From: a virus
Reading direction: 5' to 3' (one strand)
Virus record (IMG/VR): IMGVR_UViG_3300045988_163776
Location: 128,001-155,695 of that record
Length of the DNA: 27,695 bases
Shown here: in pieces, positions 7,309 to 13,175 of the stretch
Layout of the letters: every line of letters starts with the position of its first letter
How positions within the stretch are numbered: position 1 is the first letter of the stretch
The notes under the pieces: model-generated
What the model saw: the letters and a program-made list of their open reading frames with translations, nothing else
The model's database searches: none
What the model was told of the DNA's origin: nothing
Program-made: the position numbers and the translations under genes

Positions 7309-7378
7309 CATCTTATGGTGCAAAAGGATAGCACACTGTTGTACAGCAGAGATAAAGGTTCGAATCCTTGAAAGATGA
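7309..7378 (+). tRNA. tRNA-like gene with a shortened anticodon arm (5-bp stem, 4-nt loop GTAC); no assignable anticodon
   Basis: Hand fold: acceptor catctta/aaagatg (6 of 7 bp), D arm gtgc-aaaaggata-gcac (Gln-like), T arm aaagg-ttcgaat-ccttg. The anticodon arm ctgtt-gtac-agcag is 3 nt shorter than canonical. Confidence 0.45.
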
Positions 7379-7703
7379 TCTATTTAGTAAAATGGTTTAT
7401 AATTTAAGTTTTCCGGAAAAACTTAGTACAATCATTGGATTTATATTATGAGTTCGAGTCTCATTAGCTTGCTACAGTAAAGGACGAATATAAAAACTTA
7501 AAATGTATTAGAGGTCAGCTCTGTGGTGAGAGTGAGTACTAAGATACAGGAGATTGGAAGTAAGCAATACACACCACTGAGCTTACTTTTGAGAGATATG
7601 AGATAGAACCTCCTCGTGGTTTCTCTCGGGCAATGCCTTAATAACTTTTGTTTATAGTTAATATGGTAGCAAATCTATCTTTACCCCTTTCCTTATAATA
7701 CTT

Positions 7704-7781
7704 AAAAAAAAGACAGTATCAGCAAATGAAATGCGTTAAATTAGGGATTTAAAGTGCTTTTATAAAACTGTCTTGTAATAT
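7704..7781 (+). ncRNA. bipartite long-range stem element E1 (aagacagt...actgtctt + TGTAA), encloses an anticodon-arm-like hairpin
   Basis: The 8-bp helix pairs 7710-7717 with 7767-7774. The conserved box ATCAGCAAAT follows the 5' arm. The inner hairpin is ttaaa-TTAGGGA-tttaa. Confidence 0.5.
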
Positions 7782-7849
7782 GGTTCTATGGTTTAAGAAA
7801 TTAAAGTACTGTTTTATCATAGTAGAGCTTAAATCTCATAGAACCACCA
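7782..7849 (+). tRNA. compact tRNA-like gene with perfect acceptor stem and encoded CCA; 6/8-nt anticodon loop, reduced T arm
   Basis: Acceptor ggttcta/tagaacc, then A-CCA. Anticodon arm tactg-ttttatca-tagta. The T arm is only gag-cttaaat-ctc. Confidence 0.4.
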
Positions 7850-7855
7850 TTATAT

Positions 7856-7928
7856 AGTGATGTAGTTCAGTTGGCAGAACACCTCTCTAATACGGAGGAA
7901 GTCATAGGTTCAAACCCTATTATCACTA
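7856..7928 (+). tRNA. tRNA with anticodon AAT (Ile by anticodon; A34 is unusual)
   Basis: Acceptor agtgatg/tatcact, D arm gttc-agttggca-gaac, anticodon arm cctct-CTAATAC-ggagg, T arm atagg-ttcaaac-cctat. Confidence 0.7.
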
Positions 7929-8063
7929 TCTTGTGTCGTCGTCAGCGACTATAAATAACTGTGCAGGTTCCCGTGCGATAGCGGATGTGCAAGCTAATCC
8001 ACAAACATACTATCGCCTATATTCCTCTATAGCTCAGCTGGAGGAGCCAAATACATTGAATTG

Positions 8064-8097
8064 AGGGTATTAGTCCTCAATTCAATGTTCTAAAGGG
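8064..8097 (+). repeat. perfect 13-bp hairpin inside a tRNA-like fragment
   Basis: cattgaattgagg-gtattagt-cctcaattcaatg, flanked by a canonical D arm (gctc-agctggag-gagc, 8042-8057) and a closing helix ctctat/atagag. Confidence 0.7.
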
Positions 8098-8406
8098 ATA
8101 GAGAATTTGACTTTTAATTAAGTTCTCTAGGTTCGAATTTTTATATCGACTTTTGCAATAAATCATTCGAGAGGAAGTGCGACTCGACATTACAGAGAAA
8201 TCTCAAACGTGATAAAAACGGCGTCTAAAGTCATGACAACAAACGCCATCTATAATGTGACGGATGGTATAAAGGTTGATTTGCTGTAAAAGTTGATATA
8301 GAGATTCTATTAGTTATTTATAAATTCTATTATGAAAAATACTAGTTCACCTTATATAAAATTTAAAGATTATAAGGCTTGAACAAAATAATTTTATATT
8401 TTATAT

Positions 8407-8482
8407 AGCAGGCGGTAGGTGAAGTCATCTTTTCAGCCTCATAAGCTGAAGTAACCGGGAGCATTACCCGGGCCTGTTCCCA
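8407..8482 (+). tRNA. tRNA(CAT) (Met/fMet/Ile2-type) with non-canonical T loop and encoded CCA
   Basis: Acceptor agcaggc/gcctgtt, anticodon arm tcagc-CTCATAA-gctga, T arm ccggg-agcatta-cccgg, then C-CCA. Confidence 0.6.
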
Positions 8483-8522
8483 TTAAACGTTCATTACTTA
8501 GAAGAAAGGGGAAGTGACAAAT

Positions 8523-9014
8523 ATGGCTAAAGAAATTGAAAGAAAATTTTTATTATCTCATCTTCCAAAAATCAAGGCGGATGAAATGTGGTATGTGGAA
8601 CAAGCATATATCTCAGTAGAGCCAGAAGTGAGAATACGAAACAAAAAACCTATGACAGGTTACTTCCCTGGGTCTTATTATAACAAATATTTAATGACAA
8701 TTAAAAGCGATGGTTCTTTAATAAGAGATGAAATTGAAACCCCTATTTATGAAAATTTTTATAATGAAACTATTGGTTTTATAAATAAAGAGCCAATTAA
8801 AAAGGAATACTTTGTTTATAATATAGATAATTTGCAATTGGAAGTATCAATAGTTGATAAAGAAACAGACTATAGTTTTATTTATGCAGAGGTTGAGTTT
8901 CAATCAGAAGAAGAAGCTAAAGCTTTTAAATTTCCTTTTCCAGAAATTCTTATTGAGGAAATTACTTATCAATCAGATTATAAAATGAAAAATTATTGGC
9001 TTAATAGCCGATAA
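8523..9014 (+). CDS. CYTH-domain (triphosphate tunnel metalloenzyme) protein
   Basis: The N-terminal EIERKFLL matches the ExExK CYTH signature. 163-aa ORF with an AAAGGGGA RBS. The alternative GTG 8514 is in frame. Confidence 0.7.
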   Translation: MAKEIERKFLLSHLPKIKADEMWYVEQAYISVEPEVRIRNKKPMTGYFPGSYYNKYLMTIKSDGSLIRDEIETPIYENFYNETIGFINKEPIKKEYFVYNIDNLQLEVSIVDKETDYSFIYAEVEFQSEEEAKAFKFPFPEILIEEITYQSDYKMKNYWLNSR

Positions 9015-9035
9015 TTTTAAATCAAATATTTATAT

Positions 9036-11275: not shown

Positions 11276-11308
11276 TTGAAAAATAAGAAGTAAGAAAGGG
11301 GTAATTAA

Positions 11309-12400
11309 ATGAATATTATATGTTCTGGTTCTAGATATCAAGTGTATGATACAGAAGATATAAAGACTTATTCTAAACTTCCAGTAGGGACATATGAAGT
11401 ATGTTTTAATCAAAATATTGGTTTTTATCTAACTGCTCATACTGCATTAGAAGTTAAAGAAGAAAAAATTTACGGCTCTACTTTAAACAGAATAGATAAG
11501 ATATTATCATCTTTTGGAAAAAGTGAACGTAACTTTGGTGTTATTTTAAGTGGAAATAAGGGAAGTGGTAAGTCTTTATTTGCAAGAGAATTAAGTAAAA
11601 AATGTCTTGAAAAAGAAATGCCTGTTATTATTGTTAATATAGCAGTTCCAGGAGTAGCTTCTTTTCTTGCTTCAATTAAACAAGAGGTAATGATTTTATT
11701 TGATGAGTTTGAAAAAACTTTTTCTTTTGAAAATGATTGCGGAGAAAAATCTGAACTTCCGCAAGAAGAATTGTTATCTTTATTTGATGGTTTGGATAGT
11801 GGTAAAAAATTATTCATAATTACCTGCAATGATACTTATAGGTTAAGCGATTATTTACTTAATCGTCCGGGCAGATTTCATTATCATTTTAAACTTGGTG
11901 TAGTTACACCGGAAGATATGAGAGAATATATGTCTGATAAATTGTTACCAAAATATCATTATAATATTGAAAAATTAATTAATGTAAGTAATTTTGTTGA
12001 TATGACTTATGATTTATTAAGAGCAATTGTTTTTGATCTTAATCAAGGATATGAATTAGAAGAAACATTATCTGATTTAAATGTTGACAATAAAGATTCT
12101 ATATCAATTGAAGCAACTTTAACCCTTGAAAATGGTTCCGTGTATAAAGCATTAAATTCACATTTATATTTTCAAAACCGTGATTGTTTACAACTCTTTG
12201 ATAGAAATCATGTGGGAGTAAATATAATTTATTACGCTAAAGATTTAAGTTTCAATGGCAATGAAGTTGTTTTAAAAAAATATACATTATCTTTTGATGA
12301 CCAAGCACCAGAAAGTGATAAGCAATCAGAGGTTAAAGAATTAACTATTAAAATAAAAAATGAGTATTCATTTAATTTTATGAATAGTTTTACAGTATAA
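11309..12400 (+). CDS. AAA+/P-loop ATPase
   Basis: Walker A GNKGSGKS and Walker B VMILFDEFE. 363-aa ORF with an AAAGGGG RBS. TAA stop. Confidence 0.85.
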   Translation: MNIICSGSRYQVYDTEDIKTYSKLPVGTYEVCFNQNIGFYLTAHTALEVKEEKIYGSTLNRIDKILSSFGKSERNFGVILSGNKGSGKSLFARELSKKCLEKEMPVIIVNIAVPGVASFLASIKQEVMILFDEFEKTFSFENDCGEKSELPQEELLSLFDGLDSGKKLFIITCNDTYRLSDYLLNRPGRFHYHFKLGVVTPEDMREYMSDKLLPKYHYNIEKLINVSNFVDMTYDLLRAIVFDLNQGYELEETLSDLNVDNKDSISIEATLTLENGSVYKALNSHLYFQNRDCLQLFDRNHVGVNIIYYAKDLSFNGNEVVLKKYTLSFDDQAPESDKQSEVKELTIKIKNEYSFNFMNSFTV

Positions 12401-12434
12401 ATGCGGTCCGGTTGTATAAACCGGATCAAAATAT

Positions 12435-12508
12435 CTGGGTATGGGAAAGTTTGGTAATCCGCCTGATTTGGGATCAGGAGACCGCAGGTTCAAATCCTGC
12501 TACTCAGA
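12435..12508 (+). tRNA. tRNA-Pro(TGG)
   Basis: Acceptor ctgggta/tactcag, anticodon arm cctga-TTTGGGA-tcagg, T arm gcagg-ttcaaat-cctgc. No encoded CCA. Confidence 0.8.
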
Positions 12509-12718
12509 GGCTTTAGAAAGATAATACCTTCACGTGGTTAAAGCTGTTTTTACTAAAATTATCTTAATAGGTAGCTCGACAGTACCTCCAAGCTAGCATA
12601 AGGGTATTAGAAAAAAGCTGTCCGTTTATGAAAAGAGTTTGTCGAGAAAACTCTTAGTGTAGTACACATTGGGCGGGAATTTTCCCCCGTTTGCGTTTAA
12701 AAGAAAGGGGTAAATAAT

Positions 12719-12937
12719 ATGTTATATGGGACAAGAAATAGCAATAACTATAATAATGAAACCCTCAATTTCTTAGATATTATAAGTATTGCTTCTTTTA
12801 TTTTGCAACTATAGAATAGAGAAAGCAATATGATTGCGGAAATACAAAATCAATTATCTGAAAAAATAGATAAACAAATTAATGTAAAACTTGATAAAAT
12901 TTTAAAAGATTTAGAAGACATAAAAAGTAAAATATAA
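12719..12937 (+). CDS. small protein (72 aa) with one in-frame TAG at 12812-12814
   Basis: ATG 12719 follows AAAGGGG. Hydrophobic N-terminal part, then FILQL[TAG]NRESNMIAEIQNQLSEKIDKQ... coiled-coil. TAA stop. Confidence 0.45.
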
Positions 12938-12940
12938 TAT

Positions 12941-13014
12941 GGGAGTTTAGTGTAATGGTAGCATGCTTGGCTCCAACCCAAGTGGTTAGGGTTCGAATCT
13001 TTAAATTCCTGCCA
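12941..13014 (+). tRNA. tRNA-Trp(CCA)
   Basis: Acceptor gggagtt/aattcct, anticodon arm cttgg-CTCCAAC-ccaag, T arm taggg-ttcgaat-cttta, then G-CCA. Confidence 0.8.
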
Positions 13015-13023
13015 ATAATTTTA

Positions 13024-13052
13024 ATTGATTTTTTAATAAAAATATAATATAA
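13024..13052 (+). promoter_or_regulatory. promoter family copy (TTGATT-N17-TATAAT) driving E2 and its tRNAs
   Basis: The -10 lies 10 nt upstream of the E2 5' arm. Confidence 0.65.
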
Positions 13053-13061
13053 TATATGTAA

Positions 13062-13175
13062 AAGACAATAACAGCAATAAGTTCGAGAGTAGCTCAGATG
13101 GTTAGAGTGTTATAGTAAAATATAAAGGTCTGCAGTTCAAATCTGCACTTTTGGAGAAAACAACGTTGTCTTGTA
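13062..13175 (+). ncRNA. bipartite long-range stem element E2, encloses a complete tRNA (13083-13155)
   Basis: The helix aagacaa(t)/(g)ttgtctt pairs 13062-13069 with 13165-13172. Box AACAGCAATAAG. 3' tail TGTAC. Confidence 0.5.
13083..13155 (+). tRNA. tRNA with a 6-nt anticodon loop GTAAAA (AAA/Phe-like or TAA/Leu-like; ambiguous), embedded in stem element E2
   Basis: Acceptor tcgagag/cttttgg (3 G-U pairs), D arm gctc-agatggtta-gagt, anticodon stem ttata/tataa with a 6-nt loop, T arm tgcag-ttcaaat-ctgca. Confidence 0.55.

Follow-up and report, generated by a model that had tools for sequence, protein, structure and literature searches.

The closest described counterparts of the RNAs considered here are the YrlA and Yrn RNAs that accompany Ro60 (Rsr) (Chen et al., 2014; PMC4201824) and the Yrl1 and Yrl2 RNAs found with the Ro60 of the Thermus phage phiLo (PMC12135203). 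YrlA RNAs follow a circularly permuted tRNA-like order, carry a Ro60-contact motif, GNCGAA(N0–1)G, near their 5′ end, and are encoded at most 4 kb from a Ro60 orthologue on the same strand; mycobacteriophages of the Ro-like group have been reported with YrlA RNAs as well (PMC4201824). RNAs that are most likely of this type, judging from their architecture, their weak YrlA similarity and their gene neighborhood, are described here in a 27,695-nucleotide (nt) stretch of viral DNA (IMG/VR record IMGVR_UViG_3300045988_163776, positions 128,001 to 155,695), hereafter the window. A preliminary description, made from the letters of this stretch, had singled out tRNA genes with 4-, 6/8-, 8- and 6-nt anticodon loops and four others with aberrant T loops. 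These oddities have three causes: some are cargo of a family of small RNAs termed handle RNAs, some are tRNAs with a variant elbow, and one to three are decayed copies. The unifying feature, missed at that stage, is the shared handle and its tie to a Ro60-like protein.

The window covers the tRNA island of a phage of ~156 kb that comes from assemblies of human gut metagenomes; over 13 kb, it matches a 155.7-kb ENA metagenome scaffold (ERZ28573263 scaffold_68) with 100% identity. With a base composition of 31% GC, it bears on its plus strand, between ~7300 and 17000, a dense array of tRNAs and tRNA-like elements (16 ARAGORN calls, 19 Rfam tRNA matches) that encloses an AAA ATPase gene at 11309–12400. 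The best cultured matches of this ATPase, at ~42% identity, belong to Herelleviridae such as Enterococcus phage EFDG1, whose homologous gene likewise lies within a tRNA array; judged by the ATPase gene, Herelleviridae are the closest cultured relatives. The distant comparator set comprised 51 IMG/VR loci with 29–57% ATPase identity, and EFDG1 (L052) and Bacillus phage PK-3 (L065) served as annotated comparators. A BLAST of the odd tRNAs against the 51 distant loci found only tRNA-Tyr conserved, with short partial matches for the 6-nt-loop element, tRNA-Phe and the suppressor tRNA. Because these matches were too few, closer relatives were gathered through protein look-ups, namely a ~95%-identical relative (L053–L057) and a ~73%-identical one (L058). 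A megablast of positions 7000–17500 against INPHARED gave no match, and an exact IMG/VR search for the arm of the 6-nt-loop element returned 0 matches.

Several of the odd elements are bounded by common motifs, 5′-AAAGAC-NNN-(A/U)ACAGCAA on one side and NNN-GTCTTGT-3′ on the other. For the 3′ motif (GTCTTGT together with five degenerate positions), the window holds four occurrences where 0.15 would be expected; handle RNAs number five in total, E1 to E5 (Table 1). Related loci contribute 85 unique elements, with a preponderance of 129 to 5 on the plus strand, that of the tRNAs. Among 59 elements selected by the two motifs only, the variable stem triplet is complementary at all three positions in 44 and at two of three in 15, with 19 triplet types and 11 G–U pairs at the variable stem positions. 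Since these complementary triplets adjoin AAGAC and GTCTT, the handle ends form a real RNA helix of 8–9 base pairs (bp; 5′-AAGAC-NNN/NNN-GUCUU-3′), which closes an RNA of 50–125 nt. Immediately inside the helix, at the position equivalent to the YrlA GNCGAA, the box (A/U)ACAGCAA(A/U) is present in the five window elements and in most related ones; its first two positions vary, and variants include AUCAGCAA in E1, ACUGCAA in E4 and GGCAGCAA in E5. In minimum free energy (MFE) folds of the handle RNAs, ACAGCAA stays unpaired on the 5′ side of the junction.

The handles are intimately interleaved with tRNA genes. In 44 of the 85, a tRNA begins 4–12 nt after GUCUUG (mode 6–7 nt); many start 3–4 nt after the CCA of the upstream tRNA, and others follow a −10-like box. 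The window holds at least five copies, and up to 7 occur per 20-kb related locus. E1 is followed by the next tRNA 5 nt past GUCUUGU, E2 by tRNA-His 6 nt past it, and E5 stands 8 nt upstream of the suppressor tRNA, a type of tRNA that is directly preceded by a handle in 11 relatives. Promoter-like sites lie at 13025–13053 before E2 and at 16788–16816 before E5. Comparison with close relatives shows conservation of several elements: E1 is kept in L058 with a compensatory A–U to G–C change in its stem, and its cargo recurs in L037 and L028; the anticodon arm and loop of E2 are identical in L053 and L055; and the T stem of E3 changes from GCGG/CCGC to ACGG/CCGU in L053. The E4 cargo is degraded in L053. 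Four other interpretations of the handle were considered and rejected. Read by eye as a boxA/nut-like antitermination signal, it matches at only ~6 of 12 positions, and what follows GUCUUG is variable. Terminal repeats that act on the DNA level, whether attC-like as in integrons or those of miniature inverted-repeat transposable elements, are contradicted by the 129:5 strand bias, the G–U pairs of the helix and the tRNA-like cargo, while 8–9 bp is too short for an RNase III processing stem. Nor are permuted tRNA genes destined for re-joining a tenable identity for the cargo, as neither a ligation logic nor acceptor ends can be discerned.

Inside the constant handle, the cargo takes one of seven forms: (i) a circularly permuted tRNA-like domain composed of a hairpin, a T arm, a closed acceptor hairpin and a D arm; (ii) that domain with a complete anticodon arm after it; (iii) D, anticodon and T arms in unpermuted succession, the acceptor stem being present or absent; (iv) one hairpin resembling an anticodon arm, whose loop is, for example, CUUUUAA (Lys type), CUGUAAA (Tyr), CUGUUAA (Asn), CUGAUAA (Ile) or UUAGGGA; (v) just a T arm; (vi) other structures of 145–165 nt; and (vii) none. 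The first of these corresponds to the published YrlA layout (PMC4201824). Its RNAalifold consensus, from 14 diverse members, consists of the outer stem, T arm, closed acceptor and D arm, 24 pairs in all, 18 of which show compensatory changes among the 14 homologues; 97% of the cells are paired, versus 74% in shuffles and 34–45% in slid-partner controls. This V hairpin–T arm–closed acceptor hairpin–D arm order within a 5′/3′ stem is found in E4 and 14 homologues, and E1, E2, E3 and E5 have other layouts. The Rfam YrlA model (RF02553) matches E4 at 13747–13851 with 31.5 bits (E 9e-5) and related elements, including EFDG1 and the loci L037, L047 and L034, with 28–43 bits. Cargo is exchanged rapidly between near-identical phages while the handle remains unchanged, and within one cargo type close relatives may differ by a single loop base (CUGUUAA vs. 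CUUGUUAA). A loop of other than 7 nt occurs in 7 of the 22 ARAGORN calls inside handles (6 or 8 nt) versus 19 of the 1024 outside, and none of those 22 carries CCA. Such variable loop lengths fit RNAs that mimic tRNA shape without decoding; anticodon loops of 6, 7 or 8 nt would be free to drift because handle cargo never decodes.

The link to Ro60 emerged from a protein encoded at the end of the EFDG1 tRNA island, a 510-amino acid (aa) "RNA-binding protein" (gp143) with Pfam DUF2828 and DUF7788/vWA domains (PHROG 850), homologues of which occur in 27 of the 51 related loci. The relationship is visible by fold comparison only: a sequence profile of the DUF2828 family gave no Ro60 match in the PDB, and this branch has no Pfam TROVE match at E ≤ 0.01. 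When the AlphaFold model of a family member (predicted local distance difference test score 73) was compared with the PDB by Foldseek, ranks 1–10 were all Ro60/Rsr, aligned over their full length (~510–590 columns) with E values of 1e-8 to 1e-4. The best match is the Ro60 of Thermus phage phiLo (E 1.4e-8; template modeling score 0.54–0.58). A Pfam VWA_2 match, together with the metal ion-dependent adhesion site motif (DxSGS in the EFDG1 protein, DTSGSM in the family consensus), identifies the vWA domain. On the strength of the model, the DUF2828 and vWA protein has a predicted Ro60 fold, that is, a helical-repeat ring joined to a vWA domain. The family also includes mycobacteriophage proteins annotated as "Ro-like RNA binding protein."

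Gene neighborhood connects this protein to the handles. In EFDG1, the Ro60-like gene is immediately preceded on its own strand by three tandem handle RNAs, 130–560 nt upstream, with the variant handle AAGAAC…ACAGCAA…GUUCUUG. In Bacillus phage PK-3, handles with exact AAGAC, ACAGCAA and GUCUUG are interleaved with tRNAs, one of them 87 nt upstream of the gene. The window itself contains no Ro60-like (DUF2828) gene, and its 547-aa open reading frame (ORF) at 1092–2735 was rejected as a candidate by hhalign as well as by Pfam, NCBIfam and PHROGs. However, a contig that is 98% identical to the last 1.9 kb of the window (L062) continues with two handles, a tRNA and a Ro60-like gene, ~0.2–0.65 kb past the window end, with the gene starting at ~0.65 kb. 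Same-strand proximity within ~4 kb is thus seen in EFDG1, PK-3 and L062. Across the 51 loci, which are partial stretches of related, phylogenetically non-independent phages, 24 contain both handles and the Ro60-like gene, 3 the gene only, 10 handles only, and 14 neither. In the collection of papers searched, none was found that links Herelleviridae, DUF2828 or Enterococcus phages to Ro60 or Y RNAs. As a separate observation, the second gene downstream of the Ro60-like gene in L062 (7389–9887, ~5.7 kb beyond the end of the window) encodes an 832-aa protein that matches MVP_shoulder and Vault_3; the pairing of a vault-shoulder-like protein with the TROVE fold is curious.

Set beside YrlA and Yrn RNAs, the handle RNAs share a stem formed by their 5′ and 3′ ends, a conserved, unpaired purine-rich motif just past the 5′ strand, a tRNA-mimic module (V hairpin, T arm, closed acceptor, D arm), a location on the same strand as a vWA protein with the Ro60 fold, in several phages directly upstream of it, and the presence of more than one Y RNA per locus. 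They differ in that the box is ACAGCAA and not GNCGAA(N)G or CGAA, in the additional, invariant AAGAC/GUCUUG terminal helix, in the many copies scattered through a tRNA island 4–12 nt from tRNA genes, in cargo that also includes unpermuted cloverleaves, D–anticodon–T units without acceptor, bare anticodon hairpins or nothing, and in a partner protein from the DUF2828 branch. By two of its defining marks, the Rfam score and the GNCGAA motif, the handle RNAs fall outside YrlA, and they add features not described for it.

Turning to the oddities originally reported, all eight were recovered by ARAGORN, Rfam and RNAfold at their reported positions or at most 1–2 nt away, the four unusual anticodon loop sizes and the four odd T loops included. 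Among ~1046 ARAGORN tRNAs from the window and the 51 related loci, 97.5% have a 7-nt loop and ~95% a TTC T loop; the odd loops are therefore unusual and not noise. The assertion that they sit in otherwise well-formed cloverleaves does not extend to two elements that are domains of larger RNAs, nor to one that is ill-formed. A comparison with the canonical tRNA (RF00005) separates the elements further. Those at 7309–7378, 11037–11109 and 13082–13156 lack the 7-nt loop with U33 and a purine at position 37, 7782–7849 is ambiguous in this respect, and all five T-loop variants possess it. CCA is encoded at 8407, 10296, 13181, 13472, 14589 and 7782, and not at 7309, 11037 or 13082. The two cloverleaf-type cargos appear to have no free acceptor end: 13283–13353 lacks acceptor pairing altogether, with 4 non-pairs in the Rfam alignment, and 13082–13156, which ARAGORN calls with the loop GTAAAA and Rfam scores at 40.7 bits with one loop position deleted, runs into handle sequence on both sides. 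Finally, in place of the canonical G18 G19 and T54-Psi55-C56, four tRNAs have A18 and G55.

This last departure obeys a simple rule. In a cloverleaf scan of all loci, which yielded 916 tRNAs, 857 of the 872 with T at position 55 have GG in the D loop, whereas 11 of 11 with G55 have AG there and never GG; the G55 tRNAs of the window, CAT, Glu-CUC, His and Tyr, all conform. The tRNA-Tyr loop, TGCGATT, is a fifth odd T loop beyond the four initially recognized, and 87% identical copies of this tRNA exist in L018, L019, L022 and L023. In L053, the orthologue of 8407–8482 has the T loop AGCGUUA. Compared with L058, tRNA-Glu(CTC) displays three compensatory changes in its anticodon stem and a further one in its acceptor stem; the L058 T loop reads GGCAGAA. 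The tRNA-His of L053, with D loop AAUGGUA and T loop UUCAAUU, has switched both sites together relative to the window, and its anticodon stem is wholly different yet paired in both. The suggestion of decaying pseudogenes is therefore contradicted for the T-loop variants by the D-loop/T-loop covariation and the compensatory stem changes. Because CCA ends and compensatory stem changes are kept, the G55 tRNAs are probably maintained and functional, with an alternative elbow. The tRNA-Phe at 13472 is a milder, U55C variant, and 19 T loops of the TCC type occur in relatives. Phage tRNAs known to escape host defenses include T5 tRNA-Lys, which evades PARIS, T5 tRNA-Tyr, which evades retron Eco7, and mycobacteriophage anticodon-loop variants. 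Like these, the window tRNAs depart from the host-like consensus while keeping the anticodon, and tRNA-His shows fast allele turnover. Unlike in these, the clearest systematic change affects the D-loop/T-loop elbow (A18/G55) and not the anticodon loop, and no defense system has been linked to the elbow change of the window.

Decay is evident at 7782–7849, where L053 and L058 both have a canonical tRNA-Asp(GTC), and here the pseudogene proposal is borne out. The element retains a perfect 7-bp acceptor stem followed by ACCA, has a T arm of just 3 bp, and is called by neither Rfam nor ARAGORN. Its most stable fold has 6 bp and a 6-nt loop, or 5 bp and an 8-nt loop; alignment to the intact orthologues yields a weaker register with the 7-nt loop UUAUCAU. 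Relative to L053, the bin 7800–7859 contains 23 substitutions, of which 10 are G>A and 10 are C>T, besides 8 gap positions, where ~3 are expected, in a genome whose substitution spectrum is symmetric at ~5% divergence; the GC-to-AT burst is limited to the tRNA-Asp gene. This is a decayed or hypermutated tRNA-Asp gene, and the burst looks like a deaminase-type signature or the replacement by an AT-rich allele. As in other tRNA pseudogenes, the acceptor stem and CCA persist while T-arm length and GC have been lost, but the decay was abrupt and looks less like slow drift than like hypermutation of this locality or a replaced allele.

For two further elements, 7309–7378 and 11037–11109, degeneration is plausible, and both are probably degenerate tRNA copies too. 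The first resembles a tRNA-Gln whose anticodon arm has been shortened: its D arm is similar to that of the phage tRNA-Gln, a promoter-like site lies at 7250–7278, and the RNAfold MFE structure is a cloverleaf whose anticodon arm of 14 nt, not 17 nt, comprises 5 bp and the loop GUAC (4 bp and a 6-nt loop according to ARAGORN at a lowered threshold). It differs by one mismatch from L053 and is absent from L058. The tRNA-like element directly after it (7380–7472) is called by ARAGORN as a 93-nt "tRNA-Pro(cgg)" of 28% GC, has no Rfam match, and is 98.9% identical in L053. The second element, 11037–11109, is given an 8-nt loop, TTGATTAA, with anticodon "gatt" by ARAGORN and scores 31.1 bits in Rfam; in its MFE fold the arm closes further to a 4-nt loop. 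The segment differs from L053, which has a tRNA-Leu(TAG) there, and no relative was found in 58 loci, L053–L057 included.

Table 1. Coordinates of handle RNAs, tRNAs and tRNA-like elements in the window
Feature	Position	Strand	Description
tRNA-like, anticodon arm 3 nt short	7309..7378	+	Free-standing, no CCA, Rfam 33.2 bits
Second, poorly formed tRNA-like	7380..7472	+	T arm ATGAG-TTCGAGT-CTCAT, directly after 7309–7378
E1 handle RNA	7710..7776	+	Stem AAGACAGU/ACUGUCUU, box AUCAGCAA, cargo a small hairpin with loop UUAGGGA
Decayed, hypermutated tRNA-Asp(GTC) copy	7782..7849	+	The "6/8-nt loop" element of the preliminary description
tRNA(CAT) with CCA	8407..8482	+	T loop AGCAUUA (G55), D loop AG not GG
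tRNA-Glu(CTC) with CCA	10296..10370	+	T loop AGCAUAA (G55), D loop AAAAGUAA, Rfam 37.5 bits
Orphan tRNA-like, 8-nt loop UUGAUUAA	11037..11109	+	33% GC, no CCA
E2 handle RNA	13062..13174	+	Cargo a complete cloverleaf, 13082–13156, 6-nt loop GUAAAA
tRNA-His(GTG), G-1:C73, CCA	13181..13255	+	T loop GGCAGAA, D loop AAUAGUA, Rfam 37.7 bits
E3 handle RNA	13262..13363	+	Cargo 13283–13353: D arm, anticodon arm (GUUUUAA), T arm
tRNA-Phe(GAA) with CCA	13472..13549	+	T loop UCCGACA (C55), D loop GG kept, Rfam 58.5 bits
E4 handle RNA	13733..13855	+	Cargo circularly permuted tRNA-like: T arm, closed acceptor hairpin, D arm
tRNA-Tyr(GTA) with CCA	14589..14676	+	T loop UGCGAUU (G55), D loop AG
E5 minimal handle RNA	16829..16878	+	8–10-bp stem, CAGCAA in loop, without tRNA-like cargo
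Amber-suppressor tRNA(CTA), long variable arm, partner of E5	16887..16974	+	ARAGORN, Rfam

Taken together, the preferred explanation, which is probable though held with real reserve, is that the odd elements comprise handle-borne, Y-RNA-like tRNA mimics, elbow-variant tRNAs and degenerate copies. The elements at 13082–13156 and 13283–13353 and the permuted domain of 13733–13855 would be cargo of handle RNAs and not tRNA genes; the tRNAs at 8407, 10296, 13181 and 14589, whose T loops are of the RGC or UGC type, would be working decoders in which G55 pairs with A18; and 7782–7849, 11037–11109 and 7309–7378 would be degenerate copies. The handle RNAs would be released from tRNA operons by the enzymes that trim the neighboring tRNAs, with the RNase P cut at the tRNA 4–12 nt downstream freeing the 3′ end and 3′-end processing of the tRNA 3–4 nt upstream freeing the 5′ end. 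They would then join the divergent Ro60 homologue of this phage (DUF2828 and vWA) as partners of the Y RNA type, the handle serving as the protein-binding module for the Ro60-like protein and the cargo as a non-chargeable mimic of a tRNA or anticodon arm that may recruit or distract tRNA-binding proteins.

A number of points weigh against this explanation. Neither E4 nor its relatives reach the YrlA gathering score of 69, and ACAGCAA stands where YrlA has GNCGAA(N)G. Within the fetched stretches, 10 loci have handles without a Ro60-like gene and 3 the reverse, and the related loci are phylogenetically non-independent. The presence of a Ro60-like gene in this exact genome is suggested by the 98%-identical sister contig, and its presumed position leaves the five window handles 10–20 kb upstream. 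We infer the transcription of the handles, their ends and processing, their binding by Ro60 and their biological role. Since the E2 cargo has its own acceptor stem, RNase P and RNase Z could excise a tRNA-sized RNA and thereby destroy the handle. For the other two classes, replacement of the Psi55–G18 pair by G55–A18 is a structural reading of the covariation, and "degenerate copy" is the default for 7309–7378 and 11037–11109, for which the comparators are either too close or without the element.

Alternatively, the handle RNAs might be Ro60-independent decoys or sponges for host tRNA-targeting defense nucleases or tRNA-modifying enzymes, an unlikely proposition that can nonetheless be combined with the preferred one, the Ro60 ribonucleoprotein (RNP) then providing the platform. 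PrrC/RloC, PARIS, colicin E5 and some retron effectors classically attack lysine tRNA and the GUN family, and the cargo does include bare anticodon-arm hairpins with Lys-, Tyr-, Asn- and Ile-type loops besides UUAGGGA. Its rapid change on a constant handle between near-identical phages, its non-chargeable architecture without a free CCA end, and the fact that the window and L053 have entirely different anticodon stems and loops in tRNA-His would suit such decoys as well. Yet there are few anticodon types, some of them redundant because the phages are related, many cargos (the YrlA type, E5) have no anticodon arm at all, no defense nuclease or cleavage has been linked to the handles, and a pure decoy model leaves the conserved ACAGCAA box and the Ro60-like synteny unexplained. 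It is improbable, too, that all the anomalies are pseudogenes or debris in a fast-evolving, AT-biased island, with the handles as leader or trailer hairpins that aid processing or stability. One gene, tRNA-Asp, has clearly decayed, gene content shifts between close relatives, the handles are tightly juxtaposed to tRNAs, and the single-sequence folding z-scores of handle RNAs are weak and uninformative (−0.3 to −2). Such debris, however, would hardly share the ACAGCAA box and AAGAC/GUCUUG helix across gut and rumen phages and PK-3, with a variant in EFDG1, where the accompanying Ro-like proteins are merely 33–43% identical. Nor does it account for the strong covariation in the cargo helices, for the EFDG1 tandem of three handles without an intervening tRNA upstream of the Ro60-like gene, or for the elbow covariation and CCA ends, which indicate that the T-loop variants are maintained. 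The 6-nt-loop element resists the pseudogene label as well, being the same in relatives and housed in a conserved small RNA.

The proposal that the non-7-nt-loop elements are quadruplet or +1-frameshift decoders for recoding, for instance at G8 tracts, is very hard to credit for the window. Frameshift-suppressor tRNAs of the sufD/sufJ type have 8-nt anticodon loops. The 8-nt loop of 11037–11109 in a well-paired, normal cloverleaf resembles them, and 11 relative loci contain a different, free-standing, CCA-ended tRNA with the conserved 8-nt loop GUUAAAAG. This tRNA, which is missing from the window, lies just upstream of the AAA ATPase gene (L008 9902–9975 and 10 other loci); its loop reads GUUAGAAG in L011, and in L029 and L044 its acceptor stem has changed in a compensatory way. 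As a candidate for a decoder with an expanded anticodon it surpasses every window element, and its conservation means that expanded-loop tRNAs may be used somewhere in the clade. Moreover, the G8 runs of the window at 21793–21800 and 22410–22417 are G9 in the 95%-identical L053, a difference that could reflect slippage-prone tracts or assembly error, and these runs are probably the source of the "+1 requirement" invoked in the preliminary description. Unlike sufD/sufJ, however, 11037–11109 is not conserved, being absent from the 95%-identical phage (L053–L057), lacks CCA, and carries its extra base 3′ of the GAU anticodon; at 33% GC, its arm is closable to a 4-nt loop. A four-base anticodon GAUU would read AAUC and is unrelated to a G run, and no cognate four-base site was identified. 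Loops of 6 and 4 nt are unable to present an anticodon normally, the 6-nt loop belongs to a handle RNA whose cargo lacks CCA and apparently a free acceptor end, and 7782–7849 is the decayed tRNA-Asp.

A more far-reaching version of the Ro60 proposal can be put forward as a speculation of rather low probability. Large Firmicutes phages would possess their own Ro60–Y RNA system, in which a universal handle (AAGAC helix and ACAGCAA box), once RNase P and RNase Z have cut it out of tRNA operons, displays on a DUF2828-type Ro60 a quickly exchangeable set of uncharged mimics of tRNAs or anticodon arms. These would be baits, sensors or decoys for the nucleases of host defenses that target tRNAs, or guides that lead polynucleotide phosphorylase or repair enzymes to damaged tRNAs, while the A18–G55 elbow would mark the phage's real tRNAs off from those of the host.

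Several features of the island were noted alongside. Beyond the suppressor tRNA, the frame of 18500 on the plus strand is open for ~2.4 kb (18500–20879) but for eight in-frame TAG codons at 19505–20603, with no TAA or TGA, and its L053 orthologue is called as one 810-aa gene with stops of this kind. The gene evidently uses TAG as a sense codon, in agreement with the suppressor tRNA(CTA) at 16887–16974. A NUMOD1 homing-endonuclease-like ORF occupies 9624–10130 within the tRNA island, large indels separate 14940–16000 from L053, and L053 has a GIY-YIG gene inserted near tRNA-Phe; these genes and indels fit a reshuffling of the island by mobile endonucleases. The tRNA-Ile(AAT) at 7855–7930 has the anticodon AAG on the same tRNA body in L053. 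A34 tRNAs are common in relatives (Ser-AGA 20 times, Leu-AAG, Thr-AGT, Pro-AGG), and their frequency suggests inosine-type wobble use. Related islands also carry tmRNA genes, the ROOL RNA (260 bits in EFDG1) and the cow-rumen-3 RNA (L052 9929–10515 and 16360–16710; L003 5975–6319; L034 6191–6331), none of which was found in the window. Between the first tRNA-like elements and E1 lies a GC-richer intergenic stretch, 7473–7706, with blocks strongly conserved in the 73%-identical L058, e.g., UUUUGAGAGA..GAUAG.ACCUCCUCGUGGUUUCUCU and AAAUCUAUCUUUACCCCUUUCC; it has no Rfam match and a folding z-score of merely −0.8. After E4, a long hairpin at 13856–13925 (GGAAGGGUG … CACCCUUU) has undergone an 18-nt expansion of GGU-rich repeats in L053 and L055.

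The occurrence of handle RNAs together with a Ro60-like gene in the cultured phages EFDG1 and PK-3 turns what were "odd tRNAs" into a testable system. The A18/G55 covariation, for its part, is a compact and checkable rule that bears on tRNA structure and possibly on escape from host enzymes. If the interpretation of the handle RNAs as Ro60 partners is true, tRNA-finder calls with impossible anticodon loops in phage tRNA islands would be explained, and annotation should leave such calls out of its count of decoders or suppressors. The effector module of a Y RNA would then be swappable like a cassette, and Y RNA and Ro60 biology would extend to many more phages, the DUF2828 gene matching 707 phage records.

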